In this document: one piece after another, positions 11,812 to 59,566 of the stretch
Position numbering within the stretch: the first letter of the stretch is position 1
Layout of the letters: every line of letters begins with the position of its first letter
Assembly (NCBI GenBank): GCA_050084515.1
Contig: CM114271.1
Span: 25,792,001 to 25,856,000 of the forward strand
Reading direction: 5' to 3'
From: Blasia pusilla
Taxonomy: Eukaryota
Length of the DNA stretch: 64,000 bases
The notes under the pieces: generated by a model
Database searches by the model: none
What the model saw: the letters and a program-made list of their open reading frames with translations, nothing else
What the model was told of the DNA's origin: nothing
Made by a program: the position numbers and the translations under genes

Positions 11812-12950
11812 TTAAAGGAAGGTTTGGAAGACGGGTGCATGGATAAAGCTTTCTGTGAGCACTAGAGATAGAAATCCTATCATGGCGAGTCGTCCGTTCC
11901 AGCGCTCGGCTTTGGCCGTGAAAGGCCCGAAGCTTCGAGCATCCGTAGACTCCCCATTCAGCATCGGGACAATTGACGCGTACGCGATCAAGGGAACGAG
12001 CGCGATGTACCACACCAGCCCCGTTCCCTGTGTGTACAGTTGATCGAATACCGTCAGCCCGCTCACCTTCTCTGCTACCGCCGCCCATACTACGCCGAGC
12101 ATCGCCTGCAACAAAGCGTATTGAATATCGGTGAAATTATGTTAAGAAACGTCTATGCCGAGCATCGCCTGCAACAAAGCGTATTGAATATCGGTGAAAT
12201 TATGTTAAGAAACGTCTATGCCGAGCATCGCCTGCAACAAAGCGTGTTGAACATCGGTGAAATTATGTTAAGAAACGTCTATCGCCTGCAACATAGCATG
12301 TTGGACATCTGTAAAATTATGTTAAGAAACGTCTATGCCGAGCATCGCCTGCAACATAGCATGTTGAACATTGGTAAAATTATGTTAAGAAACGTCTATG
12401 CCGAGCATCGCCTGCGACAAAGCGTATTGAACATCGGTAATTATGTTAAGAGACGTCTATAGTATCCAGCTTAAGCTCGACCAAATAGACTCGGGAAATT
12501 GAGTTTTTCCTGGCAGGAGAATGAGCTAGGGGCCTACAGAATCCTGTCCGGGCAGAGCGGGGAAAAACTCACCAATCGGCCGTTGATGGTCTCCGGTGCT
12601 GCACCGTCAAAAGCAAAAATGCTACCGATACTCTTGTCACCAGTCTCAGGGCGCCTCTCCACTTCGGGACGCGGGTAGAAGGAGCCGGATTTTGGCACAG
12701 CACCAAAGACTGATTTCTTCTCTGACTCATTCGTCTCCTGGTTTTCCAATATCTCCTCCCGGGTGATATCGTTCTTCGTGGCGTTGTCCACGGTCTCTCG
12801 AACACTTTCGCACCGGATGAAGTTCCTTCCGGCTACCATTGGCGTCGAACTCACACCGCCGAAAGCCACAGAGCTGGCCGGGTTCCTGAAGCGCTGGGTT
12901 GAGAATGACAAGCTCGACAAACCTCCCAAAACGACCGAAGAGGAAGCCAT
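11812..12950 (-). CDS. ELIP: Early light-induced protein (ELIP)/LHC-like chlorophyll a/b-binding family protein with transit peptide. Exons 12950-12573 and 12105-11812
   Basis: Two LHC helix motifs FAFDGAAPETINGRL|AMLG and AERWNGRLAMIG; Ser-rich N-terminus; GT donor at 12572-12571, CAG acceptor at 12108-12106. Confidence 0.9.
12094..12460. repeat. Six tandem copies of an ~63-bp unit (one lacking 9 bp) spanning the ELIP intron/exon-2 boundary
   Basis: Unit GCCGAGCATCGCCTGCAACAAAGCGTATTGAATATCGGTGAAATTATGTTAAGAAACGTCTAT starting at about 12094, 12157, 12220, 12283 (short), 12337 and 12400. Confidence 0.95.
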
Positions 12951-13598: not shown

Positions 13599-16329
13599 CC
13601 ACTTTATTAGAAAATAAACCTCAAAAGAGGAAAAAAAGTCAGTCAGGGTCCACAATGCTCAAAATATCAGAATGGTATGAACTTGGTTGAATGATCAACC
13701 ATGACAACGCTCGAACTGCCCATGATTCACGTAAGAATATCTTCAGTTCCCACCGCTCACATGATGCGCAAAAACATCTCAAAAGAGGAGCCAAAAAATG
13801 CATGATGGAATGCGAAAAGAAAATGGCAACTAGCCAACGCAAACACCAACTCAACGAGCTGAATTGAAAGTCTGAAACAAATCTGACAAGAACACGAGTG
13901 TTTGGTCAGACGTGAATGGACGACGAGGCGAGCTACCCCACAACCACCTCTGCACGACATATCAATGCCAAGGCTTGTGGACGTTGTAAGGCCACTGAGA
14001 TGCATTGCCGAAAATAAGACACATGTAAATGACCGAATACTTCCACTGAAAAAGGAATAAATCCATCATTCGTATGTCTCACAACATCACTTAACTCATT
14101 GATTCTTGTTGCAGCTTCGGCCGCCTAACCTTTGGTATGTGCGGCTCAACACACCAAGTCAGAACTTGTTGGATCACCAACCACCAAATCACCTAGTGTC
14201 CGGAATACACCTCGAGACATAGCAAGATCCACTCTCTGACGAGAGGTTGCTTGTGTGGTTGAAGGTAGCACATGGAGTTGCTCTTGCCCAACGGTGTATC
14301 ATGCAGTACGAGCCACTGATGCAACCGCCTCTCTAATGCAATCATGTGTGGCTGTTCGTTCTCCACCATGTGCACATCAGAGAATATGGATACCCTTGGC
14401 ATCAATGGGATCCCCGCATACACAATTAGGCACACCTAATAGAGAAGGATGGGGAAGTCCAAGGCGTAACCGCAAAGCTGTCGAGAATATACTTCAAGAA
14501 AGACGAAATGGAAGAATAAGAGGATTCGCAATAAGGCACGCCCCCGCTCCGATACCTGCACATGAATGCAGACAAGCTCAATGAGCGTCAGAGGATGCCT
14601 CAGAGAGAATGCTAGAAAATTTGATTTGATGTAGATTCTCTGAGATATGCTCTTGAAGTCGATCAAGCCCTTCCATAATCAATTGACTGAAAGGGGGTAG
14701 AATTGCTTGTGTAGCAAGAGGAAGAAGAGCTCGTGCAGATCTCAATTGTTGTTGAAATAACAAGTTCCCCTCTTCTACATGGGCAACATGATCCATCAAG
14801 ATAGGTGTATCGCCTTGGCGAAACCTTGAAGCCATAATCGGTGCGACCAACGCCCAACTCCCCAAAAAGGCTGTGGGAGGAAATTAGACTGTGGAGCAAA
14901 GTCCCACCCCTCCAAAAGAAATAGGTAAGATAGTTTTTTGTGAAGCCAAGACACCATCCTCTCCCTCAAATATATTCGAGCCAAGAAGTTGACCAAAAGT
15001 TGCCAAGATAGAAACGTCAAAAGAGGCCGACCAACATAAGAACCTTGAAGTGGGAGGAGAAGTGCGAAGAAAGTAGGAAGGACGTCGTAGAAAATATTTG
15101 GAGAGAATCCCATAAGCCACTTGGGGATCCCCCAGATGAGGTAAAAAATGAAGCCATTACACGTCTTTCAAAAGGACCTCATCCAAGAACTTTGAGACAT
15201 AGTCGACGAAGTCAATTGGGACCCCAAGAACCCTAATCCCTTCAATGTAGATGGGAAAATCAGGAGTAGGTGGGGTGAATGTTGAGGGTAGGCATGAAGG
15301 AGACCATACTCCACATTTACTAGGCGGGACTTTAAGGTTTAAGAAAGAGAGTTGCTCCACGAAATGGATATAAGCAGGAACCACTTCAGAAGGAGGACCT
15401 GTTGAGTGTCATCAACAATAGAAGGGAAAAGAGAAGATGGAAATGCTTGTGCTCATGCTCGATGGAAACGAGAATGGGCAATGGCAAAGAGTGGGCCACC
15501 CATGGGATCACCTTGATGTGTACCACAAGCCGATTGTAAAATACTATATTCCCCGGAAGTAGCATGATGAGAATAGATAATGGGCGTATCATAGGCAAAG
15601 AAGGAGCAAACAAATGGAATAAGACTCGTAAGTTGTCCTCCTGCACAACGTAACTCCTCAAAGATGGCCGCACGAGAAACTGAATTGAATGCATTAGCCA
15701 CATCGACCTGAATTACTACCCATTCTGGATGAATATCAAAAGTGGAGCAAATCCCATGCACCACATCTTCACAACCTCCAGGAGTTGCCACTCCAAATTC
15801 ATGAGGAAATAAGTTGGCACTAAAGTGAGGACAAAATTGCAAGCATAGGGATTGACTAACCAAGCGGTATAAGACATCTCCAATAGCCAAACGGCGAACA
15901 CCTTAGGGAGGCTTATCCATAGCCAACAAACGACAAGCCCCTAAGAGCATGGAGACAAAGAATGGGAGACGACATGCCGCAATATGTGCACACACCTTAT
16001 ATATAGAGAGAGAGAGACAAAGCCACTTGCTGAATCTAGCGGGATAAAGCAATGGCGGAGATGCTCAAAAAACCATCCTTGATAGACCGCTTGCTGATAA
16101 GCAAGGAGTATGAAGAAAAGCCCTTGTGAAAACCTCCAAGTCAAGCTCCAAGTCAAGGTCCGTTGTAAAGTCTTCCACAAAAGGTGGAGCATCGCCACTT
16201 GAGGGAGGGTGAAGAGCTTCTAAGAGAGCCGCTTTTTCCGCACTTGGAACCTCCGGAGAGAGAGGACCCAACGCTCGAGCTGCACGTGAAAACTCACCAA
16301 TGAGCCCCAAAAGTAGACTTCGTCAAAGG
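13599..16329 (-). mobile_element. Degenerate CRE-clade non-LTR retrotransposon (RT, CCHC knuckle, restriction-like endonuclease), 3' part; ends at an (AT)9 tract
   Basis: Minus-strand motifs GEFSRAARAL, AIGDVLYRLV, HEFGVATPGGCEDVVH, DVANAFNSVSR, QGDPMGGPLFA, LRLRLG..CVCG...H...CAHGGERTATHD, RVDL...GDLVVGDP, FIPFSVEVFG and ISVALQR; AATAAA followed by (AT)n at 13598-13581; many stops and frameshifts. Confidence 0.85.
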
Positions 16330-16817
16330 TGTCATATCTTTTAGGATAGATCGATGAGATCTAGTAGAGCGCCTTTGTGAGTAGTGGAGGACAGGCTCAG
16401 TAGGTCGAGGATGACCTGTTGAAGCTCATTTGGAGCCATATTGAGCAACTTACTATTTTAGGTAACTACCATTTTGAGTATATGGTCGACTTTCTTTTTT
16501 TGGTAAGTGGCCTTTGACCTCCTACATCGGGTCAAGAGCTTAGGAGGTGACTTGGGAGAATATGTTACCATGGAGAGAGCTTGGTAGAAGGGAGCTTGGT
16601 AGAAGGGAGGGGTATACCTCAAGGAGAGAGAGCTTGAGAGCTCATTCTCTCTTTCTTGAACCTCTTGACATGAGGCGGAGGAGCTATGGTCCCTTGCCTT
16701 GTGAGTGTAACCCAAGCCTCTCATCAGGAAAGTGGGTCTGGTTTGACATGAGAGAGAGTACACATCTTTGAGAGCTATGGTGTGAGATGGTGTAGAGAGA
16801 GATTGGATCTTACTTTA
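16330..16817 (+). repeat. Terminal repeat block A1 (copy A2 at 25968-26476)
   Basis: TGTCATATCTTTTAGGATAGATCG...GATTGGATCTTACTTTA is highly similar to 25968-26476, apart from an ~40-bp indel, a 15-bp duplication and scattered substitutions. Confidence 0.95.
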
Positions 16818-18357
16818 CAAAGAGAGAATGAGAGAATGAGAGAGCTTCATGGGGAAGCTCGTCGGTCACTCGCTGTTTTTGCAGGTTGGGGACTGTGTTC
16901 CCTGTTCAGCGGCTCATAGGAGTGCTCACCAGAGCAAGGGCTGCTTGGACTGTTCTTTGCATTTGCCGATTTTTGTGTGGAAGAGTGGCGCACGGAAGCG
17001 CTGCCCAATTTCTGATAGGGATTGATTATGGGGGCGGGTTGCCCCATGCCGATGCTCTCGGGAGCACCATGTAGCTTGATGACTTGTATTTTTACAGGTT
17101 TTATATTTTGGTTGGGAGAAATCAGCGCGGAAGCGCTGCCAAATTTTGTGTAGGAGAAAGAGACATTGGGTTTTACGACAGTCCCTTTCAGTTTTTACTT
17201 TTGACGCTCTTGTAGATCGTGAAGCTATGCAGGTTGTGCAATAAACAATGCGCAATTTGGAGTTGCGAGTAAAAAGTTATGGTCAATCTTTCAAAACTGC
17301 CATTGCTAAGCAATTTTTAGAGTTAAATTGTTCAAACCCTAAACCAGCCGCCACGCCGGCGACGACTCTCGCCATCACCGGTCAATGGTCAACCGTCACT
17401 GTCAACCATCAACGGTCCACCGGCCACCGTCGGCCGTTGCTGTTGCCCAGCGTTGCTCAAAGCCGCATTCAGCCGTTGTCCACCCTTTGGTTGCCATTGC
17501 CGCCATTACGGAGTGGAGGGTCTTCCACGACGTTCGTTGATTCTCTGACTTGCGTCGCCACCACGTACTTTGTTTTGGCCGCCACAGTCATCAAAGTTTC
17601 GTTGTCAACTAGTGATGGCAGATGACTTACGGTTATGGTGTTTGAGTTTTGATTTCATGCTCCTATGTTGTGATTGGTAGCCGCTCGATGACGATCGAGT
17701 ACCGTGTCGTGACGCCCGTAGCCGTAATGCGCCGCCGATTGCCGCTCGTGGCCGCACCATACCGTCTCGATCGCAGAGTCCCACCGTCATTGTGGAAAAG
17801 AGTGTGGGTTTATTGTTGATTGAGGAGGGTATGCCGCGGAGTGCCGCATCCCACCATCGAGGGCCGTGCCGTTTGTAACCGTTCCGTGCCGCCTGCAACG
17901 CCGCACCGTTCCGCTGGAACCGCACTATCTATCGAGGAGTTTTGAGCAGCGTCTGTACGAGAGGAGTACGACTTGCTGATTGGAGGAGTTGTCTCCACGA
18001 CCGAGTTGGGGTTGAGATTTGTAGTTTCTGAGGAGCGACATTGACATGTGTTCAGGTTACCCATTTTGGTGCTTTACCCTACACGCGTGAGGGATTCTGG
18101 GATTTGGGTAGTTTATTTGGGGATATTGGGTTGTATGGATGCTGAGAGCATCATTTATGTATGTGGTTTACGGGACAAAGACCTGTGTGGGATGTCATGA
18201 GTTTAGGGTAGGTTGTCGATGAGATGATAGTGTGGTCGATTTGCCGCACCACGCCGCTTGTTGCCGCATGTTACACGTCTCGAGGAGGAAGAGTGTAGAT
18301 CGAGTGCTGCATGTTTGGGATGAGTGATTGAGCAATTACTCACAAGGTTGAGAGTGA

Positions 18358-19759
18358 TTGTGTGAGAGGGGCATTAGGGCCATCGCGGCATCTTTTCAGG
18401 ATTTTGAGAGGCGAGGTAGTGGACCTGAGAGTAGCTCTGGAGGGTTTACCCAAAGTGGTGCGAGGTTTCAAGGGTTTCTGCGTGAGAGACCACCTCGATC
18501 TCCTTCTGTGTCGTCTTCAGATGAGGGGGAGCGTATAGAAGAGTTTGTGAGCACATCGTCACACATTGTGAGTGGTCCTACCAGTCGTGCGTACGAGATG
18601 GACGATCGGAGTAGAGGACCGCGTAGGTTTTCAGGTGCAGTAGGCACGATTGAGTTGCATGATTTCATAGCAGAGTTTAGGAGTTGGTGCGACTCCGAGC
18701 GGGCTAGGAACTCTAGAGAGTTCCACATGTTTACACCATGGAACGGTATATTCCAGCATTTAGAAGGGGCGCCCATAGACGATTACCATGAGTTCTCTCA
18801 AAGATATGCACTTGAGATCGAGGCGTGGAGGCACTACTATGACCCCCATTATGTGCCATGGACAGAATTGTTCCCAGATGAGGAGGAGGAGTCAGGAGAG
18901 GCTATTTCCTCTTCCACTTGTGACGTTTTAGGAGAGGTCACTCGCACGGGAGCAGTTGCACCGTCTAGTCGGGTTCGTCCCAGGTTCAACCTTGTGGTTG
19001 AGTTCTTTGCTGAGTTGAGGACGAGCTACCAAGGGGTATGGACGGAGAAGTTGCGGAGCATCCACCACTTCCAGAGACTCCCGGGTGAGAGTTTTCATGA
19101 GGCTTACACTTGCTTGCGCTGATTGATCAACGTCACTCAGGGGTGATAGAGGCTCAAGCTATCCAGTTATGGTACGCGATGCTGGACCGGACCCTGCGGA
19201 CACGTATGCGGGAGGGGGTGCTTCTATGAACACCTCCCCTACGTTGAGAGATGTTTTTAGGACCGCCGAGAACATTGAGCGCAACATGGCGGAGGAGAGC
19301 GTAGCCACCATGGGTTCTGGGCGAGAGCTGTCACGATTGCCTGCACTACCTGTGCAGCAACGTGGACTCCGAGATAGGTCGACTGTGGCACCACGAGCTG
19401 AGGGAGGATACCGGGGGGGCGTGTCACAAAGACTTGCGCCTTCATATGCGGCTCAACAACGGCTGCCTACTATTACTTGTTGGTCATGTGGTGGAGCCCA
19501 TCATCAGCGCGATTGCACTTGTCAGGATCATGGACGTGTGCCTCAACATGGAGGAGGAGATGGTGCTGCACCAGGAGGTTATCGGTATGACTATTGTCAG
19601 AGGTATGGTCATACACGCGCCAAGTGTTTCAGTTTACATTCTCAGTTACGTCCGGACGGAGGGCCACACAGGGCACTAGAGCGAGTAGCTAGTCCGGGTG
19701 GGCCTAGAGATTGTGTACCAGGTGGTCCTGTTGGGGGACAAGGAGCTGGAGTTGCCTGA
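18358..19759 (+). pseudogene. gag-like ORF of the retroelement, with zinc knuckles
   Basis: FQRLPGESFHEAY retrotransposon-gag-like motif; CWSCGGAHHQRDC (CCHC) and a degenerate second knuckle YCQRYGHTRAKC; interrupted by a stop and a frameshift. Confidence 0.75.
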
Positions 19760-20537
19760 CACGGTGGTGGAGTTTCCCATGGAGGAGGTAGAGTACCACC
19801 ACCTAGACGCGCCTAGAGAGATGCCGGACGTGAGGTTGGGATGGATGCTCAGATACGGCAGCTACAGGAGCAGATTTCTGTTATGGCATCGTTACCTGAT
19901 GCCAGATCCGTGGCATTGACATCATATGGAGCAGCCAGAGATCTGGAGGATCCTGGTTGGATGTGCAGGGTTGCCCAGATGGAGGCATCCGGAGTTGTGA
20001 TGCGTGGAGTAGCCGCAGAGTTGGATCCACAGTGAGGGGAAGCCAGGGAACATACTAGGCTTCCTCATTCTTTCACGTTGTCCGAGGCGATGAGGACCCC
20101 ATCGATGGGTCCTTATCAGAGTTCCTGGAGAGTTGGTGTGCATGCACAGAGGGAATGGGAGAAGCGAGTACAACGACTCCTATTGTTGATGCTCAGGAGG
20201 GGCATGTGTCGAGCACGTTGTTTGGGGCGGCCACCGTTGTGTACCGCACTCCTTTATTTTCTACTTCTGATGTTATGACGTGGGGGGGGGGACTCTCGCC
20301 GAGGCTTTTCGGCTGGCCGTTTCACTATGTGAGCGCGGAGTTGGAGTTCTTGCATCACGTTCAAAGGTGATTGCAAAGGAGGTGATGGACTTGCCCTTGG
20401 AGCGGGTGCTCGGGCCATCCACGTCAGATTCGTGGAAGGCTGCGGCTGCTAAGATGGCGGAGATGCTCGCTAGACCAGCGATACAGCGTGCCATGGCTTC
20501 TCCTGGTATTGTGTTGCTAGATAACTGAGGAGCGGTC

Positions 20538-20873
20538 TTGCAGTTGGTGAGTCCCGGAGGTAGACCTTTTAGTCCGCAGCGCGTCTTGTTGGATTCAAGA
20601 GCACAACCCCTGATGTTGGGGAAAGCGTTATTCAGAGGATTTGGCTTGACGAGAGCCGATGTGGAGCGTTGTCCATTACAGATACAGAAATCCTTGGGTG
20701 GAGCGAGTACCACACAGTATATCACCCAACAGGAGGTCATGGTGAGGATTCGCCCGGAACATCCTACAGATGAGTCCGTGGTGCGAGCCAAGGCGATAGT
20801 GATTGATGCAGAGTCCTACGATGTCTTGGTTGGTGGAGCAGAGTTATACCCGATGGGGTTTTCCCTAGATTAG
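20538..20873 (+). pseudogene. Retroviral-type aspartic protease domain (degenerate)
   Basis: VLLDSRAQPLMLG (DSGA mutated) and downstream YDVLVGG. Confidence 0.7.
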
Positions 20874-21299
20874 TGGGAGTAATCAACGTCCTACACACCA
20901 TGATGGCAGTCATGTGATGGGTGCCTTAGCTCATTACCTGTTCGATTCACAGGTGCAGTGATCGAGCGATGGCCATGAGAGGTGGTGACCTTAGCAGCAT
21001 TTAGCAGTGCCTTCACTTGGCCTAGTGATTTGATTGAGGGACATGTCCATGCAGAGGATACTCATATTCCTGACATTTCTATGGAGAGGAGTGTTATGGT
21101 ACCCGCATCATTCCGTGGAGGAGAGGTGCCGTTCTGGGGCTCGATTTAGGAGCTTTGATGATTGGCAGATGAGCATGTGCAGGCCGCGTGGAGCGAGGCA
21201 TTTGCACCGGAGCATGAGGGGTCTGAGGAACCCGAGGTAGCATGGAGTGCTACGATGACACCCTTGGATACCACACTTATTTTGTGGTGTACCCTTGAG

Positions 21300-22250
21300 G
21301 AGGGTATTCGAGTGTTAGATCTCTTTGGAGGGATTAGCACCGGGTTAGCTGTTGTTTTGCAGGCCGGGGTACGAGTACAATAGTACCTGTATGTGGAGAG
21401 TCATGATGTTGCGAGGCGCGTCTCACTACAACATGTGGCGTAGTTATGCCTACATTTTCCCGACTTATTTTCTACGTCCACGGTACAAGAGTACAAGAGT
21501 TCCCTACCAAGGGATATTTTTTTGATGGGGGCGTAGGACTTAGAGCAGGTAGGGATCATTGATTTGGTCATTGCCGGTTGGCCATGTCAGGGCCAATTGA
21601 GTGTTGGACGAGGCAGCGGGCTGGCTGACACTCGGTCTAGGTTGTTTTGGGAGATGTTGAGGTTCTTACGGCAGTTGCAGGAGCACCGGTCTCGTTCTCC
21701 AACCTACAATTTGGAGAATGTGCCGATCTTAGGAGACTCCAGGTCACAAGTGGTGACAAGTGCTCATCAGGTGCGTGCCGAGATCGGCCCAACAGTGTTC
21801 TTGGATGCGGCGAGTGTAGGTTCTAGAGCCCATCGCATGCGTCTATGGTGGACCAACTTGGTGCCCTGTGCAATATTACGGAGGGCGTATGCAAGAGTGG
21901 AGCGCCCCTCCTATTTGTTAGTGGATTCCATTCTGAATCCAGGTCGTCGATCACACGCAGCGAGGTACGATGATCGACCACCGTTGACTGTGGTCAATCG
22001 GGTAGGCAGGCCACGGGCAACCTTGCCCACGTTTGTGAGTTTTCTTGCTTGCTATGCATACAAGGAGGCCGGTCCTGACTTGGTTTGGGATGAGCATGTT
22101 CAGCGGTTGGTGGAGCCCAATGCCGACGAGAAAGAGCGAGCGATAGGATTTCCCACAGGAGTGACGGCAGTACCCTCAGTGTCAGAGGTATCACGACGCC
22201 ATATCTTGGGTCCCGAAGTGCTTGACGTGGATCCTCAGCTTGGGAGTGGC
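21300..22250 (+). pseudogene. C5-cytosine DNA methyltransferase domain (DNMT3-like) inside pol
   Basis: One frame carries motif I VLDLFGGI, IV DLVIAGWPCQG, VI LENV, VIII AHRMRLWWTNL, IX EPNADEKERAIGFPTGVT and X RRHILG; TAG stops at 21381, 21441 and 21534. Confidence 0.92.
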
Positions 22251-22659
22251 TGAGCAACGTCATATGAGATTGCAACAGATCACATCGGTTGCGTTGGTGA
22301 GCCCCATGCCTACCAAGATGGTGGAGGTAGTGGCTGGAGGCGAGACCCGAGAAGATCCACACACTAGGGGAGATCGGGAGAGACACCCTTGGACTTCTTG
22401 GGATGTTTTGAAGGTACGCCAGGAGATGATAGCCATAACATCGAGCGTGGTTCCGGACACTGCATGTGGAGGAGATCAAAGTTTGCACTTGGTTGCAGGA
22501 GAGCGGTCGAGTGTCGTTGTTGGAGATGGGGTTGCACCATAGCAACCACCGATATCCGCGCTGGAGAGTCCTACCGAAGTCACGATGGAGACTTGGGAGC
22601 CGGATATGGGCCTTAAGTTGACAGGAGGAGAGCGGCGCCGAATACATCAGTTCCTCAGG

Positions 22660-24010
22660 AGTTATAGGAGCTGTTTTGCGTTTAGCATGGAGGATTTGGG
22701 TACGCTGGAGGGACCGCGGATCCGCATTGAGTTGTCGAGTAATACGCCAATCTTCCGATGACCCTACAAGTACAGTGATATGGAGAGGGCTTTGATTCAG
22801 AGTAGGAGCCAGGACTTGGTTGGAGCAAGACTAGTGAAGATGTTGCATGCGGAGTATGCATCTGCCACTGTCATGCCCGCCAAGAAGGATGTGCATGGCA
22901 ATTGGACGGATGGGCGGATGTGTGGGGATTACCCACCTATCAATCGGCAGACAAAGTCTGATAGGTATGCCATGCCCACCCGTGGGGAGATGTTTGATGC
23001 GATTGGTCACGCAAAGGTTTTCAATTCATTGGATTTGCAAGCTGGATACCATCAGCTGCCTATCAGATTGGAGGACATGTAGAAGATGGCATTTTGGGGC
23101 ATCGATCCTCATGGGAAGGATTTTTGTATCAGTGGCGGTTTTTACCATTTGGATTAAAGAACGCCCCAACTGAGTTTCAGAGGGTCATGGATAGGATCTT
23201 GGCTGGTCTGGATTTTGCTAGGTGTTATATTGATGACATCGTAGTCTTTAGCGCCACGATTGAGGAGCATGAGCGACATCTAGAGGAGGTGTTTCGACTA
23301 ATTGCAATTACATGAGCTGAAGCTACATCCAAGCAAGTGCAAGTTCTTCTACGACGAGATTGAGTACTTGGGTCATACGATATACCCATGGGGCCTTGGT
23401 GTTTAGCAGACGAAGGTAGAGGCTATCTCACGCATTCCACGCCCTACAAATGTGAGCCGTGTTCGCGCATTAATGGGATTGGCGAACTTCTATCGGCGGT
23501 TTGTCAAGGGATTCAGTTTGATTGCAAAGCCGCTGACCTTGCTGACCAAGTTGGATCACGAGTGACACTGGGGGATGAGCAGGAGCGAGCATTTCAATTG
23601 CTCAAGGACAGGTTGACATCTGCGCCCATCTTGAGGAGACCGATTAAGGGGTGTCCTTTCCAGTTGCACACATATTGGAGCATGTTGGGGCTTGGAGCGG
23701 TGCTCACCCAGCATGATGATCAGGGTAGAGAGTTTGTGGTGGCTTACGCTAGCCGCTCGAACAACCCTAGAGGCAAAGTAAAACTCGTATGAGGATGAGT
23801 GCTTTGCTGCAGTGTGGGTTGTTGCGCATTTCAAGTGTTACTTATTCGGCAATCCCTTTACCATCATCACTCATCATCAACCACTAAAGTGGTTGATGGA
23901 GTCCGACAAGCTTACAACGAAGCTTGCGAGATGGGCTCTGTTGTTGCAGGAGTATGATTTTCAGGTGGTACATAGACCTGGGACGCTCAACCAAGATGCA
24001 GATGGGTTCA
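22660..24010 (+). pseudogene. Reverse transcriptase and RNase H (Gypsy-type)
   Basis: RMCGDYPPIN, LDLQAGYHQ, LPFGLKNAPTEFQRVMD, YIDDIVVFS (YIDD at 23226-23237), LGAVLTQ, VVAYASRS, KLARWALLLQEYDF and HRPGTLNQDADGFS. Confidence 0.95.
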
Positions 24011-24399
24011 GTTGTAACCCATGCCCGAGTTCGCAAGATGCGACTGGAGCTCGATGGCATGGAGAGAGTGATGAGGAGTCAGTGCCAGGATGGCACACGT
24101 CAGCCTATTTAGGCATGTTGGCTATGGAGAGCCAGAGTGTGGAGACTTTGATGGCGAGGTCTAGTGGAGAGTCCTTGGATCCCGAGGCCTTTGAGGAGAT
24201 CATAGGTGGCCGAGATATTCATGATGATGGAGTAGTCTTGGAGTACTTTCGTACGGGTAGCGTTGCGAGCACTGTGGGTGCTAGAGAGCGGGATCGGATC
24301 CTACAGCGGGCCAGACGGTTCCTTTGGGAGGGGACACATGTTTTGAGGGTTTGGGTAGGTAGGGTACGCGTAGTTCCGCATCCTTTGCAGAGAGCACGA

Positions 24400-25651
24400 C
24401 TAGTGCAACATGCCCACGAGGAGTTGGGTCACTTTGGGGTGAAGCGGAAGTACAGCTTGCTTCAGATTCAGCATTGGTGGCGAGGCATTATAGACTGACG
24501 ACCAGCAGTTTGTTGCCAAGTGCATGGTGTGTGATCGGGTCTGAGCATCGTTCAATGCTCCGACTCCACACTTGCATCCATTACCTATCATGGGCTTAGG
24601 GTATAGATGGAGTTCGGATTTTTCAGGACCTTTGCCTTTGACGGAGCATCACAGTCGTTATGTGTTGGTGATGATCGAGCACTTCTCGAAGTGGATCGAG
24701 TTGGTTGCATTTCCTGACAAAGCGAGTGAGGGAGTAGCTTATGCCTTCCTTAATAGAGTGCTGAGTCATTATGGCGCACCGGCTCAGGTGTTGACAGACG
24801 GGGTACCGATTTTTGCGGTGAGTTCCATGCCTTGTGTGATCAGGCTGATCGACCACCGCACGACTTCGCGAGATTATCCCGAGGCAGATGGATTAGCGGA
24901 GAGAGTTGTGCAGACGGTGAAGAGGGGTTTACGCAAGTATGGCTTGAAGAGAGATCACCTAGGAGATTGGGACCTCCAGTTGCCATGGTTGGCGATGGGA
25001 TATAGATTCAGCAGGCAGGCATCCTTAGCGTCTTTTTCACCGTACTTGCTACTTTATGGCCGAGAGCTAGATTTACCTGCGGCCATTCATCAAGATGCTG
25101 GTGAGATGCTGGACCTTGATGACCCAGATGTATGGATGCGAGCATGTTATTAGAGGGCTGAGTTGTTTTGGAGAGTGATGCCCATGGCGTTCGAGAACTT
25201 GGCGATTGCGTAGCATCGAGATACGTTGAGGTATGCGAATATTCGGGGTGGTGGTTATCGCCCAACTATCCGGAGGTTTCATCAAGGAGATTATGTCTTC
25301 TTGCAGCAGACGGCACCGACGACATTGGATGTGACTGCAAGGCGCACTATCATGAGAGTGCGTGACGTTTTGCCATCCGGTGTTCTCTTGCTGGAGGGAC
25401 GTGATGATCTGGTATGGAAGGACCATGTGCGTAATTGTGCGCCATGTAACCTTCTTAACATTGATGGTAAAGTAGATCCAAGCTCAACAGTAGTTTCTGC
25501 AGGCTTGCGTTGTATGTTGTGTGGTTCTGCTCGTGATGCGGCCACGATGCTAGTCTGTGATGGATGTTCGAGAGGTTGGCATATGGCATGTCTGACGCCA
25601 CCTCTCACTAGGGTTCCTCGGGGACGATGGATGTGTCCCAGATGTACATAG
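24400..25651 (+). pseudogene. DDE integrase (HHCC + core) with C-terminal PHD finger
   Basis: HAHEELGHFG...CMVC, WSSDFSGP, EHFSKW, VLTDG and GLAERVV; PHD (C4HC3) CMLC...CDGCSRGWHMACLTPPL...WMCPRC at about 25510-25647. Confidence 0.92.
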
Positions 25652-25837
25652 AGGAGATACTAGGTAGGTTTTGATTCCGAATTTTTCTGTGATTTGGATG
25701 ACAAGAAGGTAACTGACGATGGGGCCACATGAGTACCCGGCCTTTCTGCTCTTAGCGTCCTTGAGATGTATGTCATGGTACGTAGGGATAGATGGCTATC
25801 TGGAGTTAGAGGGACCTAACCACCAGCTAGGGGGGCG

Positions 25838-25965
25838 ATTGGAGATAATTTAGTACTTCTTGTCTCGTTGTTTGGATGCCATGAGTTAGCATGGGATCGT
25901 GCGTATTTGTGTGTGTGTTCGGTGATAGCGATGTATGTTGTGTAGCGATGTGTATGGGCATGACA
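25838..25965 (+). repeat. Repeat block B1 (128 bp; copy B2 at 26476-26603)
   Basis: ATTGGAGATA...GTGTATGGGCATGACA closely matches 26476-26603 ATTGGAGATA...GTGTATGCGCACGACA; preceded by AGGGGGGCG. Confidence 0.95.
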
Positions 25966-25967
25966 AC

Positions 25968-26603
25968 TGTCACGTCTTTTAGGATAGATCGGTGAGATCT
26001 AGTAGAGCGCCTTTGTGAGTAGTACAGGCTCAGTAGGTCGAGGATTAAATGCTGAGGCTCTGGGAAACCTGAGAGAGCAGGTTTCTCCATCGTTTCGGCT
26101 CATTTGGAGCCATATTGAGCACCTTACTATTTTAGGTAACTACCATTTTGAGTATATGATCGACTTTATATTTTTGGTAAGTGGCCCTTGACCTCCTACA
26201 TTAGGTCAAGAGCCAAGGAGGTGACTTGGGAGAATAGGTTACCATGGAGAGAGCTTGGGAGAAGGGAGGGGTATACCTCAAGGAGAGAGAGCTTGAGAGC
26301 TCATTCTCTCTTTGTTGAACCTCTTGGCATGAGGGGGCGGAGCTATGGTCCCTTGCCTTGTGAATGTAACCCAAGCCTCTCATTAGAAGAGTGGGTTTGG
26401 TTTGACATGAGAGAGAGTGCACATCTTTGAGAGCTATGGTGTGAGATGGTGTAGAGAGAGATTGGATCTTACTTTATTGGAGATATTTTATAACTTCTTG
26501 TCTCGTTGTTTGGATGCTATGAGTTAGCATGGGATCGTGCGTGTTTGTGTGTGTGTTCGGTGATAGCCATGTATGTTGTGTAGCGATGTGTATGCGCACG
26601 ACA
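25968..26603 (+). repeat. Repeat blocks A2 (25968-26476) and B2 (26476-26603), forming the right end of the element
   Basis: Starts TGTCACGTC, ends CACGACA; A2 abuts B2 directly at CTTACTTTA/TTGGAGATA. Confidence 0.95.
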
Positions 26604-26607
26604 AAGG

Positions 26608-34381: not shown

Positions 34382-34741
34382 CATCCACCGTTGCTATTCT
34401 AGCTTTGAAAGACCGTTTAATTATAGGGCACCATTCAAACATTTGCTTTTATAAGGTAAGACTAACACGACGACTCTCTAAGCTAATCCCTCCCCACCTA
34501 CCTAAGCCCTTTTTTATACATATTTTATATTTCTCACGGTTCCTTCACGGGCTTGAGTTCAACCATCAACTAATTGTTGCTTTTATAAGGGACCTCCGAC
34601 ACGGCGGCCGCCTCACCCAATTCACGTCGGAAGTTCCAAACCCCAACTACCTAAACCCTTCCCCTCATAGAGCACTTGAGTTCCGAACCGACGGCCGTCA
34701 ACGTCATCCGGTGAGTTGCATTCGAGCATTGCGTCCCGAAG

Positions 34742-34980
34742 CAACTCTTCCCGAAGCAAGGTTCCGCGTCTTTCCGTCGGAATGGCAGTACCCACTCTTC
34801 CCGAAGCCAGGTTCCGCGTCTGTCCGTCGGAACGGCAGTGCCAACTCTTCCCGAAGCCAGGTTCGGCGTCTGTCCGTCGGAACGGCAGTGCCAACTCTTC
34901 CCGAAGCAAGGTTCCGCGTCTGTCCGTCGGAACGGCAGTGCCAACTCTGCCCGAAGCAAAGTCCCGCGTCCGTCCGTCCG
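34742..34980. repeat. GC-rich minisatellite, ~4.7 copies of a 50-bp unit
   Basis: CAACTCTTCCCGAAGCCAGGTTCCGCGTCTGTCCGTCGGAACGGCAGTGC starting at 34742, 34792, 34842, 34892 and 34942. Confidence 0.92.
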
Positions 34981-35999
34981 TGCGTTGGCCCTAACGTGCC
35001 CCCCGCCGCATCTGGTATTCGTATGCCCACGAACCAATCATCGTTTGAGGGTTTCCAAGAAGATACGGTACAGGGTTTCTCCCGCTTCCGGTCCGCCGGG
35101 CCCACATCCGCATTTATGGCTCCAGCCGGCTGCCTCTCCTGCGTCGGATTGTCCTTGGGAGAGAAAGCTTGGTAGGGTACGTTCTCTAACGAGCGACGCT
35201 ACTCCACTAAAGACACACGCACACTCGCGGCAGTGCAATCGGCTAAAAGGATCCTTTAGGGTCATAAGTGAGGAAGATGTCATGAATGATCCGGCTTTTA
35301 TACGGGTATTCCCTCGGGGGTATTCTAGTGAGAATTAATTTGGTCGTAATAATTTGGGGTATTCTAGTGAGAATGAATTTGGTCGATAAGCTTTTAATTT
35401 TTAAGAAATTGTGGAAATGAAGAGAATTCGGTGTGCGTTTAGTACGGGTCTATTATTGATATGTCAATTCATTATTACGAGTGTATATGTAGGTTTAAAT
35501 TATTAACTTTCAATTTTATTTTAAAATTATGATATATTTTCTAATTAATTATAGAATTATTTATTGATTGAGAAATCAAACAATCCTACTGGTTAAAATA
35601 GGATGGATATCCATAGGAGTTTGAAAAATGAATGGACATTCTCCAACAATGAGATAGATTTAACCCCTCCACATTGGCAATATCATATTTGAACGTGTTT
35701 GGGATTTAAGGGTTATTGTTCCTTTTTTTCCATGTCTTAGGATTTGAAAAATCTTTACTTTGTTTAGGTAGGGTTTTCAAAAATGATTGTCCAATCTCTT
35801 ATTTGATCCAAGGCTGGAAATTCTTGTTCAAAGCAATGTCCGCATAGAATCGGGATTCATTGTTGAGCTAGCCCAATGAAAATGTGAAACTCCAATCCTA
35901 GATACCAAGCTCCAGCAAAAATTCCAAAGGAAAATATTAGGTTTTGCGGAGAATGAGTTTGAGAAATTTTTCGTTTGCCTACTCTTCTAGAACGTTAAT

Positions 36000-43011: not shown

Positions 43012-46000
43012 TTACTTTGACAACCAGTACAGGAGTATGAGTATTGTACACACAAATGTTACAGTCCCTAAGATAATGTTGTCCAGTGATTTTTTGCGTC
43101 TAATATCCGTCAAAATATTATTTATCTGCAAAACACCAGCAGACTATTAATGAGCAGGCCACTCTAGCACTTGTCAAATAATATACACTTGTACACCGTC
43201 ATAAAGCATCAGATTGGCATAAGACATTCTGTGACTTCGCACTTACTGATGGTAAACTAGCTCCCATGACACCAAGTTTATGGCTGACGTCTCCGAGGGT
43301 GGAACGTTGAATAGTCAATCCACTTAAAGTTGCCTGGACGTGTGCAATAAGTGAATCCATCTGCACATCACACCACATTTCAGTCACAAACAGAGGAATC
43401 CCTTCCCATAATGAGAGTTTTGTAGACATATGCTCCTAGTGGCTTTGGGAAGTTTCCCAGCACCTGTCCATTACTCCTGCTGATAGCTGCTTGCTCTCGT
43501 AGTAGTGCTTGTTCCGAAGAGCCCAGACCATTCTCAATGTCATTTTTCTTATTTGTGGGTCCGCTGAAGGTCTCAAGTAGCTTTGCATGTTCCCGATTGA
43601 CTTTAGCCCTGCCATTGATTCGAGCATACTCCTGCATTGCCATATAAAGGCATGATTAATCTTTCCACACATACTATGAGTATCGTCATTGTTCGGTTAT
43701 TAGTGAGCAAAGCCTATCTATGCCAAAAGTTACAGTAAGAGTCTACCATAGCTTTTCCAATTCAATTGCTTCAACCACTTTCCTCAGTAAATGAACAACA
43801 GAACTACTAACTAGATTCAAACCATGCATTCAAACATCCTAGCTGTGTAGATGTTGAATACTACCCCTTGAGTTGATGAATCAGCTGGAAATGTCCTATT
43901 GCCAACTGCCAACAGTTTCTTTGAATTTCAATCGCATACTTGGAAGATATTGTACGGTCCTTTCTTTATCCACCATTCAACATAGAGTAAAAACTTTTAC
44001 ACACAGTGGTAAAGCCAAAACTTCTTTGGAGGGGAAGTCGTTGTCTCTTACTTGAGTCAACTCTTGAAGAATGTCTTTATGCCGAGCCAGGGTGTGAGAG
44101 AGAACATGTGAGGCACCACTTGATACCCATTCTTGCATTTGAGTGTTCACTTGTCGCAAGTCTTGTAGAAGCTGCTTTATTTGTGCATCAGTCACACCCT
44201 CTGGATCTTCAGGTCCACTTGCGATTTTGCGGTAAGCAATCAACTTGTCATCCAACTCACTCTCTATTTTACGAGCCTGCACAGAAGTCATAGTTTACTT
44301 TCAGACTAACAAACTACAACTCCGACAGTCTCTCCTCAAATCTAAAGCAGTCAAAGATGTGAAAAAGAAGCAAAAGAGCATCTCCATGGTCTCAGCTTTC
44401 CAAAAGTTGGCTGGCTTGCAGGATGCAGGACAATGCCTAAGTCCTTGAGAATGAAAATCAGCAGATCAGATGAGGTAAGTTATTATAATCAATCAGAATC
44501 TCTTGTTATAATCTCAGGAAGCGTCATCTCTTGTTATAGATCAAATAGAATTGGAGTTGACATTTGCAGCCAGGTGACTATGAAAATCGGCTAGGTTTTG
44601 CTCGAGACACCACCATTGTCAAGGAACATTCCTTTTGGAACTTCAGATGGTGCAAACAAGTTGCTACTACGATTTCACATCTCCTAGATCTTGTCTGGAA
44701 AATAAAATGCTAAGATGAAAGAATTGCTATGTAGAAATGTTTCACACTTCAACTCTGTATAGAAATGCTCTTTACTAAAAAAGAGATATTCGCTGGAACT
44801 ACGGTCAGTCATTCGGTAATAGATGTCCTGCCATAGGGCAGTTCACAGAAGGTCTGGTTTGTCCAAGTTTTGACATAAATTAATGCGACCTATGCTACAC
44901 TGCAAGGGAGTCATTCTAACCAGACTTGAAGACCACTTCATATCCAAGACCAGGACGACAATGGCAGACAATATGAAGGCAGAAAATCGATACACGGTGA
45001 CGGATGAACTACCTACGCTGGATGGTAAATCTATTAGCTTACGAGGTCCAAAGGATTTTCTTTTCTCTCCATCGCCCGTACTAACTTCGTTGACGTAATG
45101 CTACGTTACGTGTACATCCTTGTTTGAGGTCCAATTCCCCATCTCTTCATCGGGAGAAGTACGGCATTTTAAAAAATAGGCAAGAAAAACCGCGAAGACT
45201 GAAAGCACGTTTAAGGGGCACTAGGACCACGCGCTACAGAATGGAAAACATTAATTTTGTTTTTTTTTAAGAAACATTTTTCCAAGGGATTTACAAGAGC
45301 AAAGATTGCTTAAATTGATAAGCCCTTCCATGGATCATGTATGTGACGATTGTGAGACTAAAGATGGAAGTTCGTCTCTGTCCAACACAACACGAGGTAA
45401 AGTTTTCTACAGATCTACAATTCGGAGATACAAGAGACTACCAACGGGAACAAACAGAATTGGTTGCACGACCTACACATCAAAATGTTCGCCATCATAA
45501 CAGAGATCTGCGCGGGTCTCCACAACGATGGTCCCAAATTCAATGTAATAGACGTCGGTGGCGAGATCAAGACTCCAAATAAAAGAACCGATTTGGAGTC
45601 TTGATCTCGCCACCGACGTTTAAGGGGCACTAGGACCATGCGCTACAGAATGGAAAACATTAATTTTGTTTTTTTTTAAGAAACATTTTTCCAAGGGATT
45701 TACAAGAGAAAAGATTGCTTAAATTGATAAGCCCTTCCATGGATCATGTATGTGACGATTGTGAGACTAAAGATGGAAGTTCGTCTCTGTCCAACACAAC
45801 ACGAGGTAAAGTGTTCTACAGATCTACAATTCGGAGATACAAGAGACTACCAACGGGAACAAACAGAATTGGTTGCACGACCTACACATCAAAATGTTCG
45901 CCATCATAACAGAGATCTGCGCGGGTCTCCACAACGATGGTCCCAAATTCAATGTAATAGACGTCGGTGGCGAGATCAAGACTCCAAATAAAAGAACCGA

Positions 46001-49996: not shown

Positions 49997-51697
49997 CACG
50001 AGAGTGAACAGATGGAAGAAAATTGCTTCTGTTCGGAGAAAGTAGTTGGCTTGGGCTTGGACAAAGTCTCGGAAGAGCCACATGTACAAATGCAAACATG
50101 AATTTGAGTATCTATTGAAGGTTGAGTCTCCAGGTAAGTGAGGCAAATTCTTCATGCCGTACTTTCTCAACTTTTGTATCCATCCTGCAATTCCATGGAG
50201 GCTGAAAGGTCGTGGAGCTGTGAGAAGTATTTCTTCTCGTGCTTCAGTTGTAATTGTAGGCAAGTGACCCCGTCCACATAGAAAGTAAGTCGTGATCAAA
50301 GTTGATTCAGGTTATGCTTGGGCAGATACGGAAAGGCTCATCAGCATCTACTGCAAGTGCTCTGGTGCAGTTCAAGTTACGATTGGGTAGAAACAGCAGA
50401 ACTTCACTTGAAATTGTGCTGCACATATGGCTTTTTTATGAAGATTTCCAATGACGACACTTAATTAGAGGCTAGTAGTGGCTTGGGATTCTTGCCTTAT
50501 GTCGATTCTTCAGTATGAGGTTTGGGAGAGCTAAATTTGTCTTGTTTGTGAATTGCTGCAGCTTCAGTTGAATTCTTTATATCTGAAGAGTCCACGCAAT
50601 CCACGCAATAACTGTGGTATTTCTATCGGAAGTGTACCAAAATCTGCTTTTAGGTACAGGAGCTCATAAAATTCATACTAGCCCACAGGTGGTTAGACTT
50701 CAGGTTATGCTCAAGGAGAAACCCAGTTTCAATTAGGTTGAGTTAGAGGGAGGTGTCTATAGTTTAGGATATTGTGAGTCTGAAGGGTCCCATGTATGTA
50801 TCTTCTTATTCACTAGTGCATTGTTTAGAGACCATCTGCAAAACAAAGCCTTGGTTTTCCAGGACTATGTTCTCCTTTCTCCCTACAATCTGTCAAATTG
50901 GCTGGTGTTACTACAGCAGAGGTCTTCAAATGCCGAGTTGCTGTTCAAAGTCCCATCTTCCTCACCCTGATTCTACTCAGACATAGTTTCTTCGTACTTC
51001 TACTGCAAACAAGCACAAGGTGGACCTGTAGTCATGGGTTTTGCTGTTGGATTGCTGATGGAGGGCTATGTGGTTGTAGTTACTGTCTTATGAGATATAT
51101 AGAAACTAAAAGAAATTCGGCAGTGAAGGCTTGAAGCAGAAAGCAGTCTTACTTGCTTTATTGGTGTTTTTTCTTCTCTGGCCAGATACAATGGGTTTAG
51201 AAAATTGCTTTGCTTCCAATTTTGTCCCTATATTTTTGCGTCTACCTATCTTGGCATTAATTTAGAACGGCCATCCTTGGCAGTTGTGAGGTTGTGGCTC
51301 ATGAGATACGTTCCCCTCTTGATATTTATCTAGATTGGAGAATGATTCAAATGGATATGGCTAATGAATTCAATATAGTTTCTTATGTGGCCATATTCAA
51401 GGAGTTCCGTTTTTTTTATAGGACGACAAATTACGAGTCTTCATTTCTCCTTTGCTACTATGTCCATTATCTATTATGAGCATGCTATTTCCAAAACACA
51501 AAATATTCTCCAATGGGCATGTGGCACACATTAAGACGATTACATGAATATCCCACATTTTGCCATTGCACATTTATGTGCCTTTCGCGTATTAGGAAAA
51601 ACGCTTCCATCCTATGCTTTGTCTTCTACTGTTGATTACATCCACATTATAGCTCCTCCTTCTAAAGTGGTCTCTACTTATATTTACTTTTTGGAGC

Positions 51698-51735
<38 letters not shown>

Positions 51736-51738
<3 letters not shown>

Positions 51739-51959
51739 GGATCCCAATCAGGTAAAGTAGATTGTGTGGTGAAGAGTTTCTTGGTTGACCCTTGGAAGCT
51801 CCGCACAAACACGTTGTTTGGTCAGCACTCACACTATATGAGAGTGTCTCCCTCCTCTCATATGGTACCTTCTTCACTTGCTTCTCTCTCTACACCCATC
51901 CCAGTGCGCGGGGTCTATGGTCGCAAGGCTACGACAGGCACAACTTAATGAGTACAGTT
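51736..51959 (+). mobile_element. 5'-truncated 3'-UTR-only copy of the RTE-X-like LINE, inserted in (CT)n
   Basis: Matches 54384-54625 apart from a small internal deletion; flanked by (CT)n on both sides. Confidence 0.88.
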
Positions 51960-51977
51960 TCTCTCTCTCTCTCTCTT

Positions 51978-52096
51978 TGATGCGATCATACCAGGGTTAC
52001 TACACCAGATCCCATTAGAACTCTGCAGTTAAGCGCCCTTGGGCCGGAATAGTACTGGGATGGGTGACCTCTCGGGAAGTCCCGGTGCTGCATCCA
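51978..52096 (+). rRNA. Full-length 5S rRNA-derived sequence (head of a SINE3-like element; probably not a canonical rDNA unit)
   Basis: GATGCGATCATACCAG...AGTTAAGCGCCCTTGGG (box A)...AGTACTGGGATGGGTGACC (IE/box C)...CCGGTGCTGCATCCA, 119 nt; no oligo-T terminator directly downstream. Confidence 0.9.
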
Positions 52097-52181
52097 AGCA
52101 AGCCTTTGTCTCAAGCACCGTCCAACCAGGGCGCGGGGTCTATGGTCGCAAGGCTACGATAGGCACTACTTAATGAGTACA

Positions 52182-52209
<28 letters not shown>
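51978..52209 (+). mobile_element. 5S rRNA-derived SINE (SINE3-like): 5S head + ~74-nt LINE-derived tail + (CT)n
   Basis: Tail 52108-52181 GTCTCAAGCACC...GGTCGCAAGGCTACGATAGGCACTACTTAATGAGTACA matches the LINE 3' end at 54552-54625. Confidence 0.8.
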
Positions 52210-52212
<3 letters not shown>

Positions 52213-52291
52213 GATGGAAGTGCAATAATTGAGCAAGGCTAGGGACAAAAATGACGTAAAGGCCTTGCTCTCTCTCTCTCTCTCTCTCTCT

Positions 52292-54624: not shown

Positions 54625-54696
<72 letters not shown>
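52292..54696 (+). mobile_element. 5'-truncated RTE-X-like LINE (RT, C-terminal Zn knuckle, 3' UTR, (CT)n tail)
   Basis: NLFKKG...NYRGITLLSVVGKL, AGFR, DHIF, FLDLKKA*DTVWR, GVAQGCPLSPILFNIF, MFVDD, YTYLGI, IRPSLEYGAAVW and CALCDDGDETSSH; clade call from motif style only. Confidence 0.85.
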
Positions 54697-54701
<5 letters not shown>

Positions 54702-54799
54702 GTCCAAAGTAGTGAATGTGAAGCATGATTTCCTTCATGCCTTTACTCGATATTGAATATTCATCCCCATATACCCTTGATCTTATCATTTGCATTGAA

Positions 54800-59295: not shown

Positions 59296-59566
59296 CCTAA
59301 TGAGAGGTGGCGTCAGACATGCCATATGCCATTCTCTCGAACATCCATCACAAACTAACATAGTGGCTGTACTATGCGCAAAACCATACAACATACATGG
59401 CAAGTGAATAGGAACTAGCGCCAAGCTCAGATCAAAAGTAATGTCAGTGTTTGGAAGGTGATATTATGCACATGATCCTTCCAAACCATACCATCGCATC
59501 CCTCCAATAAAAGAATATCAGATGATAAAACATCATGTACTTTCAAGATAGTGCAAGACCAAACAT
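59296..59566 (-). mobile_element. Fragment (integrase C-terminus + PHD) of a second member of the DNMT/PHD Gypsy family
   Basis: Minus strand KVHDVLSSDILLLEGCDGMVWKDHVHN...TMLVCDGCSREWHMACLTPPL closely matches 25350-25610. Confidence 0.85.

Follow-up and report, generated by a model that had tools for sequence, protein, structure and literature searches.

The stretch of DNA analyzed here (64,000 nucleotides from Blasia pusilla, hereafter the window) contains at positions 16330-26603 a retroelement that raises two questions, namely what primes its reverse transcription and how its repeats came to be arranged as they are. The element is a decayed Ty3/gypsy element with a C5 DNA methylase, a reverse transcriptase (RT), an RNase H, a DDE integrase and a terminal PHD finger. 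Its repeats follow the order A1-internal-B1-A2-B2 (A–internal–B–A–B), with the 4-bp target-site duplication (TSD) AAGG at both ends (16326-16329 on the left, matched by 26604-26607 on the right). The best explanation overall, which we consider very likely to be correct, is a self-priming primer binding site (PBS) in a PHD/DNMT-bearing Ty3/gypsy lineage; integration of end-joined cDNA is a less certain part of the same model.

All parts of the element described here lie on the plus strand. By repeat comparison, block A1 (16330-16817), which starts with TGTCA, corresponds to the distal U3, R and U5 of the cDNA LTR. It includes a TATA-like box, GGTATACC (16611-16618), a U3 arm able to fold back on the R-start motif (16621-16633), and the R-start motif itself (16641-16656), a putative self-primer. 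The PBS complementary to this motif (16817-16832) directly adjoins A1 and has a partial tandem duplicate at 16830-16840. The internal region carries decayed gag-like frames with a zinc-knuckle-like motif (18358-19759; the zinc-finger match was weak and below the cut-off, and the gag label is positional), a putative protease fragment recognized by position and motif with no Pfam match (20529-20873), a C5 cytosine DNA methyltransferase whose frame is interrupted by stops and frameshifts (21162-22253; PF00145, E 2e-7), a broken RT and RNase H (22762-23960; PF00078, PF17917, PF17919), a broken DDE integrase with H2C2 and core (24390-25153; PF17921 and PF00665, both slightly below the cut-offs; 147 homologs) and the C-terminal part of the integrase, which ends in a PHD finger without a chromodomain (25214-25651; PF00628, E 2e-12). 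Block B1 (25838-25965), directly adjoined by a polypurine tract (PPT, 25829-25837) found at the same place in other families, ends with GACA and corresponds to the proximal U3 of the cDNA LTR. The border between B1 and A2 (25968-26476) forms an intact internal attachment-like site, GACA-AC-TGTCA (25962-25972), which was also seen in other families. A2 contains a perfect R-start motif at 26300-26315 and meets B2 (26476-26603), which ends with GACA and forms the right end of the element, at a junction (26470-26483) that we read as the joint of two cDNA ends. A1 and A2 differ by 29 substitutions in 468 aligned bases, and B1 and B2 by 8 in 127. No tyrosine recombinase Pfam match was obtained in the 39 element ORFs, nor in intact relatives (for example P0121). 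We also considered A1 as an ordinary TG...CA LTR with its end at 16819 and rejected this reading, as A2 is without the CA and the PPT precedes B1 and not A2.

The element is inserted in a decayed minus-strand non-LTR-type RT sequence (14800-16325 and to the right of 26607; RVT_1 match at 15453-15899), and pieces related to this flanking sequence are found inverted at 51459-51640 and 54696-54754. The window also contains a LINE-like RT (52540-54300) without integrase, located in the region 51700-54750 between CT-rich direct repeats approximately 2,648 bp apart, a decayed second gypsy RT fragment on the plus strand (57729-58313), and an isolated PHD-region fragment on the minus strand (59296-59554) that is 74% like that of the window element. 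Tandem arrays of 63 bp and 50 bp and a 99% identical duplication, with 409-bp spacing, are located at 12038-12501, 34692-34991 and 45207-45915.

The sequence at 16818-16832, CAAAGAGAGAATGAG, is the exact reverse complement of 26300-26314 in A2 and matches 16641-16655 in A1 at 14 of 15 positions, the A1 motif of the window copy itself being mutated (G>C at 16655). Both matches, as well as the TATA-like box upstream of the motif, had been reported in the preliminary description, and recomputation returned the same coordinates. Pairing with A2 adds one more base (A16817 : T26315), so that this duplex extends over 16 bp (16817-16832). On each strand of the 64-kb window the 15-mer is present a single time. 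A comparison of 9,020 interior positions placed the start of the longest reverse-complement match to A2 exactly at 16818, and the next-best interior match, when the site and its tandem duplicate are set aside, is 11 nt. When the LTR was shuffled 2000 times keeping k=2, 3 or 4, the observed anchored match to A1 or A2 was never equalled (0/2000 each); with k=5 its length was attained in 45/2000 (A1) and 23/2000 (A2) shuffles. The predicted transcription start, A16644, sits 31 nt downstream of the first T of the TATA-like box.

In agreement with the preliminary description, no TGG-type tRNA PBS was found after A1. The earliest TGG 3' of A1 is at 16850, and none of 76 copies had TGG at the LTR end. 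When host tRNAs were compared with the site (a partial set of 31 distinct tRNA calls with 15 anticodons, Met not among them), at most 2 nt paired at the tRNA 3' end and 8 nt internally.

Covariation of the two motifs across diverged families had been set beforehand as a test of self-priming, and it was found in five families. In addition to F1, the family of the window element, F2 and F3 were identified in the same genome and F4 and F5 in metagenome contigs. The post-LTR site was ACAAAGAGAGAATGAG in F1, ACATGAGAAAGATG in F2, ACTCAAAGAACT in F3, AATTCTAGAAAAACT in F4 and ACTTGACAAGAATGTC in F5. The site paired with its own LTR over 16, 14, 13, 15 and 16 nt in F1 to F5, respectively, compared to 4-8 nt across families, and only 0-1 of 500 shuffles per family attained the own-LTR duplex. 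Medians over all copies of F1 to F4 were 16, 14, 12 and 13 nt with the own LTR and 5-7 nt across families. Within single copies, a duplex of at least 13 nt was present in 27/30 F1 copies (a biased figure, since the query contained the site), of at least 12 nt in 12/17 F2 copies (unbiased, the query being without the site), of at least 12 nt in 12/20 F3 copies (three of which belong to one tandem array) and of at least 10 nt in 6/7 F4 copies. F5 is represented by a single contig, where PPT-B stands before A and the site after it (a collapsed or tandem assembly). No BLAST match was obtained between representative A blocks of F1, F3 and F4, and the integrases of F3-like, F4 and F5 loci were 45-68% identical to that of the window. 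The metagenome sample comprised 69 of 80 loci and yielded nine complete A-internal-B-A-B elements (two F3-like, seven F4). At the distant, probably algal, loci L165, L186, L190, L192, L206 and L207, no A1~A2 pair was found.

The predicted start was also similarly placed in these families. A pyrimidine-A is located 29-32 nt downstream of the TATA box and within the duplex in all five; for F2 and F3 the values (+32 and +30) refer to the second pyrimidine-A listed, the one within the duplex. The primer length that it implies is 12-13 nt, and 15 nt in F4. F2 (TATATAA) and F4 (TATAAAA) have canonical TATA boxes at the same spacing as the non-canonical box of F1. In four of the five families (F1, F2, F3 and F5) the PBS starts with AC, and in the same four the leader is 170-185 nt long despite dissimilar LTRs; the two features together possibly reflect a rule of cleavage or spacing. 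At L044:3560-4100, an A-like block diverged by 68% has the F1 R-start motif intact, and at L013:35-90 the F1 PBS was kept with diverged flanks.

The repeat layout is shared across the family: 28 of 30 F1 5' ends begin at A without B, and the remaining two read PPT-B-A. B was present in 12 of the 20 3' stretches fetched, comprising nine B-A-B, two B alone and one cut by the stretch end. Ordinary paired co-linear full LTRs were not found at the ends; nine of the 12 B-bearing copies were A-internal-B-A-B. The TSD of 11 genome copies with paired ends was 4 bp, perfect in eight and matching at three of four bases in three, and 6/9 complete metagenome elements had a perfect 4-bp TSD. Exact-pattern counts across the genome were 2,647 for A ends, 968 for A ends followed by the site, 1,011 for the A/B junction (overlaps included) and 603 for the intact PPT-B-site-A pattern, which contains the internal attachment-like site. 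Three or more families are present in this land-plant genome, and F1 and F3 each account for roughly 800-1000 pattern matches. The elements are abundant here, and standard LTR finders would mis-bound them. The mirror product A-B-A-internal-B was absent, as the only three pattern matches were all ordinary 3' ends with a chance flanking TGTCA. 1-LTR circles or recombination between B1 and B2 could explain the A-internal-B copies, and recombination between A1 and A2 the solo A-B copies with a TSD. At G000:C1:7357100-7361800 (L069-L071, L229-L231) we observed a tandem array of approximately 1,036 bp consisting of an F1 A/B piece and an opposite-strand F3 5' end.

The A/B joints locate the ends of the cDNA. 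Among 40 F1 joints, one shared A was found in 30, two A in seven, a retained PBS C in two and a three-base insert in one. Three forms were found in F2 (10, 2 and 1 joints), and in F3 16/19 joints were alike and 1/19 retained PPT bases with loss at the A end. Joint type was unclustered on a tree of 24 elements (5 changes vs a shuffled mean of 5.5). The subfamily marker of B2 was that of the element's own B1 in 23/23 typed elements, and the B1 closest to B2 was the own B1 in just 4/24. The variation of the joint from copy to copy and the retention of PBS or PPT bases, as in a 2-LTR circle joint, indicate that the cDNA LTR is B+A with the site adjoining its right end. A ends at the PBS and B begins at the PPT, which places the cDNA ends inside the integrated copy, at the A/B joint. 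Duplex start and cDNA end are 0-4 nt apart. Judged from the sequence, reverse transcription yields a B+A LTR whose end coincides with the beginning of the duplex, as a primer at the site predicts. This agrees with the permuted-LTR model of the preliminary description, in which the functional LTR end had been placed at the end of block A, for the A end coincides with the cDNA end at the A/B junction.

RNA-seq reads (three raw runs from one study) gave strand-biased coverage over L020:150-2150. In the same three runs no 5'-end pile-up was observed near the predicted start at 1556, a position where the signal is confounded because A2 reads map there too. Read depth carried on past the motif. Some reads spanned the A/B junction (19 loose ends in one run), so this junction can be transcribed. 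ViennaRNA folded the duplex at P>0.5 in only 5/30 F1 leaders; most F1 leaders folded otherwise in silico because of a competing GA/CU-rich stem. One leader each of F2 (nt 1-9), F3, F4 and F5 formed the duplex at P near 1. In four of the five families the U3 arm between the TATA box and the predicted start folds onto the motif, and we infer that in RNA derived from A2 this hairpin masks the primer sequence. With a transcription start at the predicted A, the U3 arm would mask only the 3' copy of the motif, consistent with self-priming. If transcription starts further upstream, the arm would block priming, and the transcription start site (TSS) is therefore decisive.

Self-priming at the 16818 site, with a transcript start at 16644 and the first 12-13 nt as the putative primer, is in our judgment highly probable, and the covariation in five families, the finding of no TGG-type tRNA site and the coincidence of the A end with the cDNA end support this reading as it was originally proposed. 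A chance or low-complexity match in a GA-rich LTR, or a functionless local duplication, is exceedingly improbable. The low-complexity caveat that accompanied the original proposal is real but small: the motif is GA/CT-rich, with the tandem duplicate at 16830 and a similar arm in U3, and k=5 shuffles attain the length in 1-2%, whereas k=2-4 shuffles never did so in 2000. Against it, five families with different sequences each form their own duplex at the same two positions, by which this explanation is largely refuted, and the site is the best among the 9,020 interior positions and adjoins the cDNA end. The pairing might instead have a structural role in the RNA (in leader closure, dimerisation or packaging), with priming by a host RNA, e.g. 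half-tRNA-Met/Ile. In several families the duplex reaches upstream past the predicted TSS by 0-5 nt, which would fit this alternative, as would the absence of tRNA-Met from the host tRNA set compared, and cleavage of the self-primer is a presumed step. However, a fixed host primer would fix the site, yet the site changes wholesale between families along with the LTR, and the cDNA end is 0-4 nt from the duplex start; we regard this alternative as quite improbable. Priming could also proceed from the 3' copy of the motif, if the RNA ended at, or were cut in, the A2 motif and this end annealed to the site. In the window copy it is the A2 motif that is the perfect complement, and covariation cannot tell the two copies apart because they are the same in sequence. 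In full-length RNA, however, the A2 motif is preceded by the pairing U3 arm (4/5 families), priming with it would leave the first strand transfer of the established LTR model without an acceptor, and read depth carries on beyond it. Priming from the 3' copy is thus very improbable.

The complementarity, its position, its covariation and the anatomy of the junctions are the observed parts of the model, and the following steps would connect them. Transcription would start at an A approximately 31 nt below the TATA-like box (16644), and the first 12-13 nt would pair with the site just past block A. The paired 5' segment would be cut off as a primer, presumably by the RNase H of the element, as in Tf1. 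Minus strong-stop DNA would jump to the R copy in A2, where the primer sequence would be masked by the U3 hairpin. The PPT before B1 would be the starting point of the plus strand, and the result would be a linear cDNA of the form (B A)-internal-(B A). Its two ends would be joined, forming the A/B junction, and integrase would make a staggered cut at GACA-NN-TGTCA, which lies one B-length beyond this junction. The product, inserted with a 4-bp TSD, would then read A-internal-B-A-B.

We lean towards the circle route, i.e. joined cDNA ends and an integrase cut at the internal GACA-NN-TGTCA site. Since the mirror product is absent (3 chance matches vs 603 PPT-side sites), this route would need a rule that spares the PPT-side site. 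The CpG-flanked site together with the DNA methylase of the element could, speculatively, be a way of marking the spared site. The missing mirror permutation also speaks for a different origin of the layout, in which no circle forms de novo. Read-through RNA that includes B2 could give rise to it by a route like that of PAT/Ngaro, or it could come from integrase-processed linear cDNA with a re-attached B piece. RNA reads that span the A/B junction would fit such an origin, and tyrosine-recombinase elements typically have this layout (PMC7192593). On the other hand, the joints are heterogeneous, show no clustering and include retained bases of the PBS or PPT, the 39 element ORFs and intact relatives gave no tyrosine recombinase, and the 4-bp TSDs and TG...CA ends point to a DDE integrase. 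An origin without a circle is therefore doubtful, though by no means negligible. The wider proposition, that self-priming independent of Tf1/sushi, obligatory joining of cDNA ends and DDE cleavage of one chosen internal GACA-NN-TGTCA site on a 2-LTR circle characterize a Ty3/gypsy lineage found throughout green plants, has in our estimate an even chance of being right.

The element has the features of Ty3/gypsy, with the Pol order PR-RT-RH-INT including a DDE integrase, TG...CA ends, a short TSD and a PPT by the 3' LTR, and the nearest solved structure for the relative P0025 was Ty3 Gag-Pol. No Chromo match was found at the integrase C-terminus of the window element, where the frame ends in the PHD finger, and Chromo and PHD occurred together in 1 of 120 among the integrase homologs listed. 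In the RT tree, 23 PHD-bearing sequences grouped together (SH-aLRT 98), with the single chromodomain sequence outside this group; the tree included no identified Tf1/sushi/Tcn1 sequence, and the representative RT search was dominated by multi-copy arthropod proteins. Membership of the window lineage in Tf1/sushi/Tcn1 is unsupported by domain content and is unproven. The nearest named integrase homologs are from liverworts, and those further out from Sphagnum, Coleochaete, Klebsormidium and Volvocales; the homologs include P0104 of K. nitens, a protein annotated with integrase and PHD. REM1 and Chlamyvir may be relatives of this lineage. The C5 methylase lies before the RT in the window element and its closer relatives (P0121, P0176) and between RNase H and integrase in P0207, P0231 and P0288, which belong to a clade with chlorophyte-named proteins. 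The differing position could be due to domain relocation or to two captures. P0155, a member of this eukaryotic lineage, is labelled uncultured cyanobacterium in NCBI, which probably reflects a mis-binned contig.

The closest described element is KnitGypsy-Dnmt3 of Klebsormidium nitens, for which a DIRS-like repeat structure is given in a figure legend (de Mendoza et al. 2018, PMC5890265). Compared by description, it shares with the window element the gypsy domains, a C5 methylase in Pol and DIRS-like split repeats (PMC5890265). The window lineage is that of KnitGypsy-Dnmt3 by domain content and repeat layout, the sequence link to K. nitens being the integrase homolog. The text of the article as available contains no primer, PPT, attachment site, TSD or integration model for KnitGypsy-Dnmt3 (PMC5890265). 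A 2026 preprint, in the part available, mentions streptophyte Gypsy-DNMT3 only in passing (10.64898/2026.05.21.726589). In a search with thin coverage of subscription journals and Repbase Reports, we found no published account of self-priming, circle cleavage or integration for the window lineage. With the PBS and the PPT fixed at these borders of A and B, a repeat layout noted in one figure legend becomes a testable mechanism, in which a DDE integrase acts at an internal site of end-joined cDNA.

In Tf1 of S. pombe the RNA's first 11 bases serve as primer after RNase H cleavage (PMC7175516, PMC4600332, as far as available). As in Tf1/sushi elements (S. pombe Tf1, S. japonicus Tj1), the PBS of the window element lies by the 5' LTR, is complementary to the predicted RNA 5' end and takes the place of a tRNA site. 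The name 'Tf1-like' given in the preliminary description therefore holds for the mechanism, by the anatomy of the site, and not for kinship, as relatedness to Tf1/sushi is not established. Similarly, the RNA start of the element would be the primer as had been suggested, but the primer is more probably 12-13 nt (15 in F4) than the approximately 11 nt proposed by comparison with Tf1. Unlike Tf1/sushi, the window element has a PHD finger, a C5 methylase and split A/B repeats and is without a chromodomain. Self-priming has been predicted for 12% of plant elements, in Tcn1 and TAR only (Neumann et al. 2019, PMC6317226, in the text available), and the window site conforms to the self-primer rule of that study, i.e. 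10 bp or more with a start 0-5 bp from the 5' LTR. Ordinary LTR pairs are present in Tcn1 chromoviruses and TAR copia elements, and a chromodomain in Tcn1; the window element has neither (PMC6317226). The available text of the same study does not mention PHD, methyltransferase, Marchantia or Klebsormidium. The window lineage would thus be a third self-priming lineage in plants beyond Tcn1 and TAR, with covariation support in five families.

Split direct repeats have otherwise been described for tyrosine-recombinase elements, and a circular intermediate was proposed for the DIRS type (PMC7192593, in the part available). The window element resembles PAT-like/Ngaro elements in the layout A1-ORFs-B1-A2-B2 (PMC7192593), and differs from them in its DDE integrase, true PPT, 4-bp TSD and TG...CA ends. 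Integration from a 2-LTR circle junction was proposed for retroviruses (Panganiban and Temin 1984) and later rejected for them, according to the available text of PMC11054761. As in that model, a symmetric CA-n-TG site on a circle would be the integrase substrate in the window lineage (PMC11054761); unlike in that model, the site lies inside the LTR with a spacer of 2 nt and is distinct from the joint between the two ends. If the circle route is true, the circle-precursor model, given up for retroviruses, would have in these elements a natural counterpart for which the circle is obligatory.
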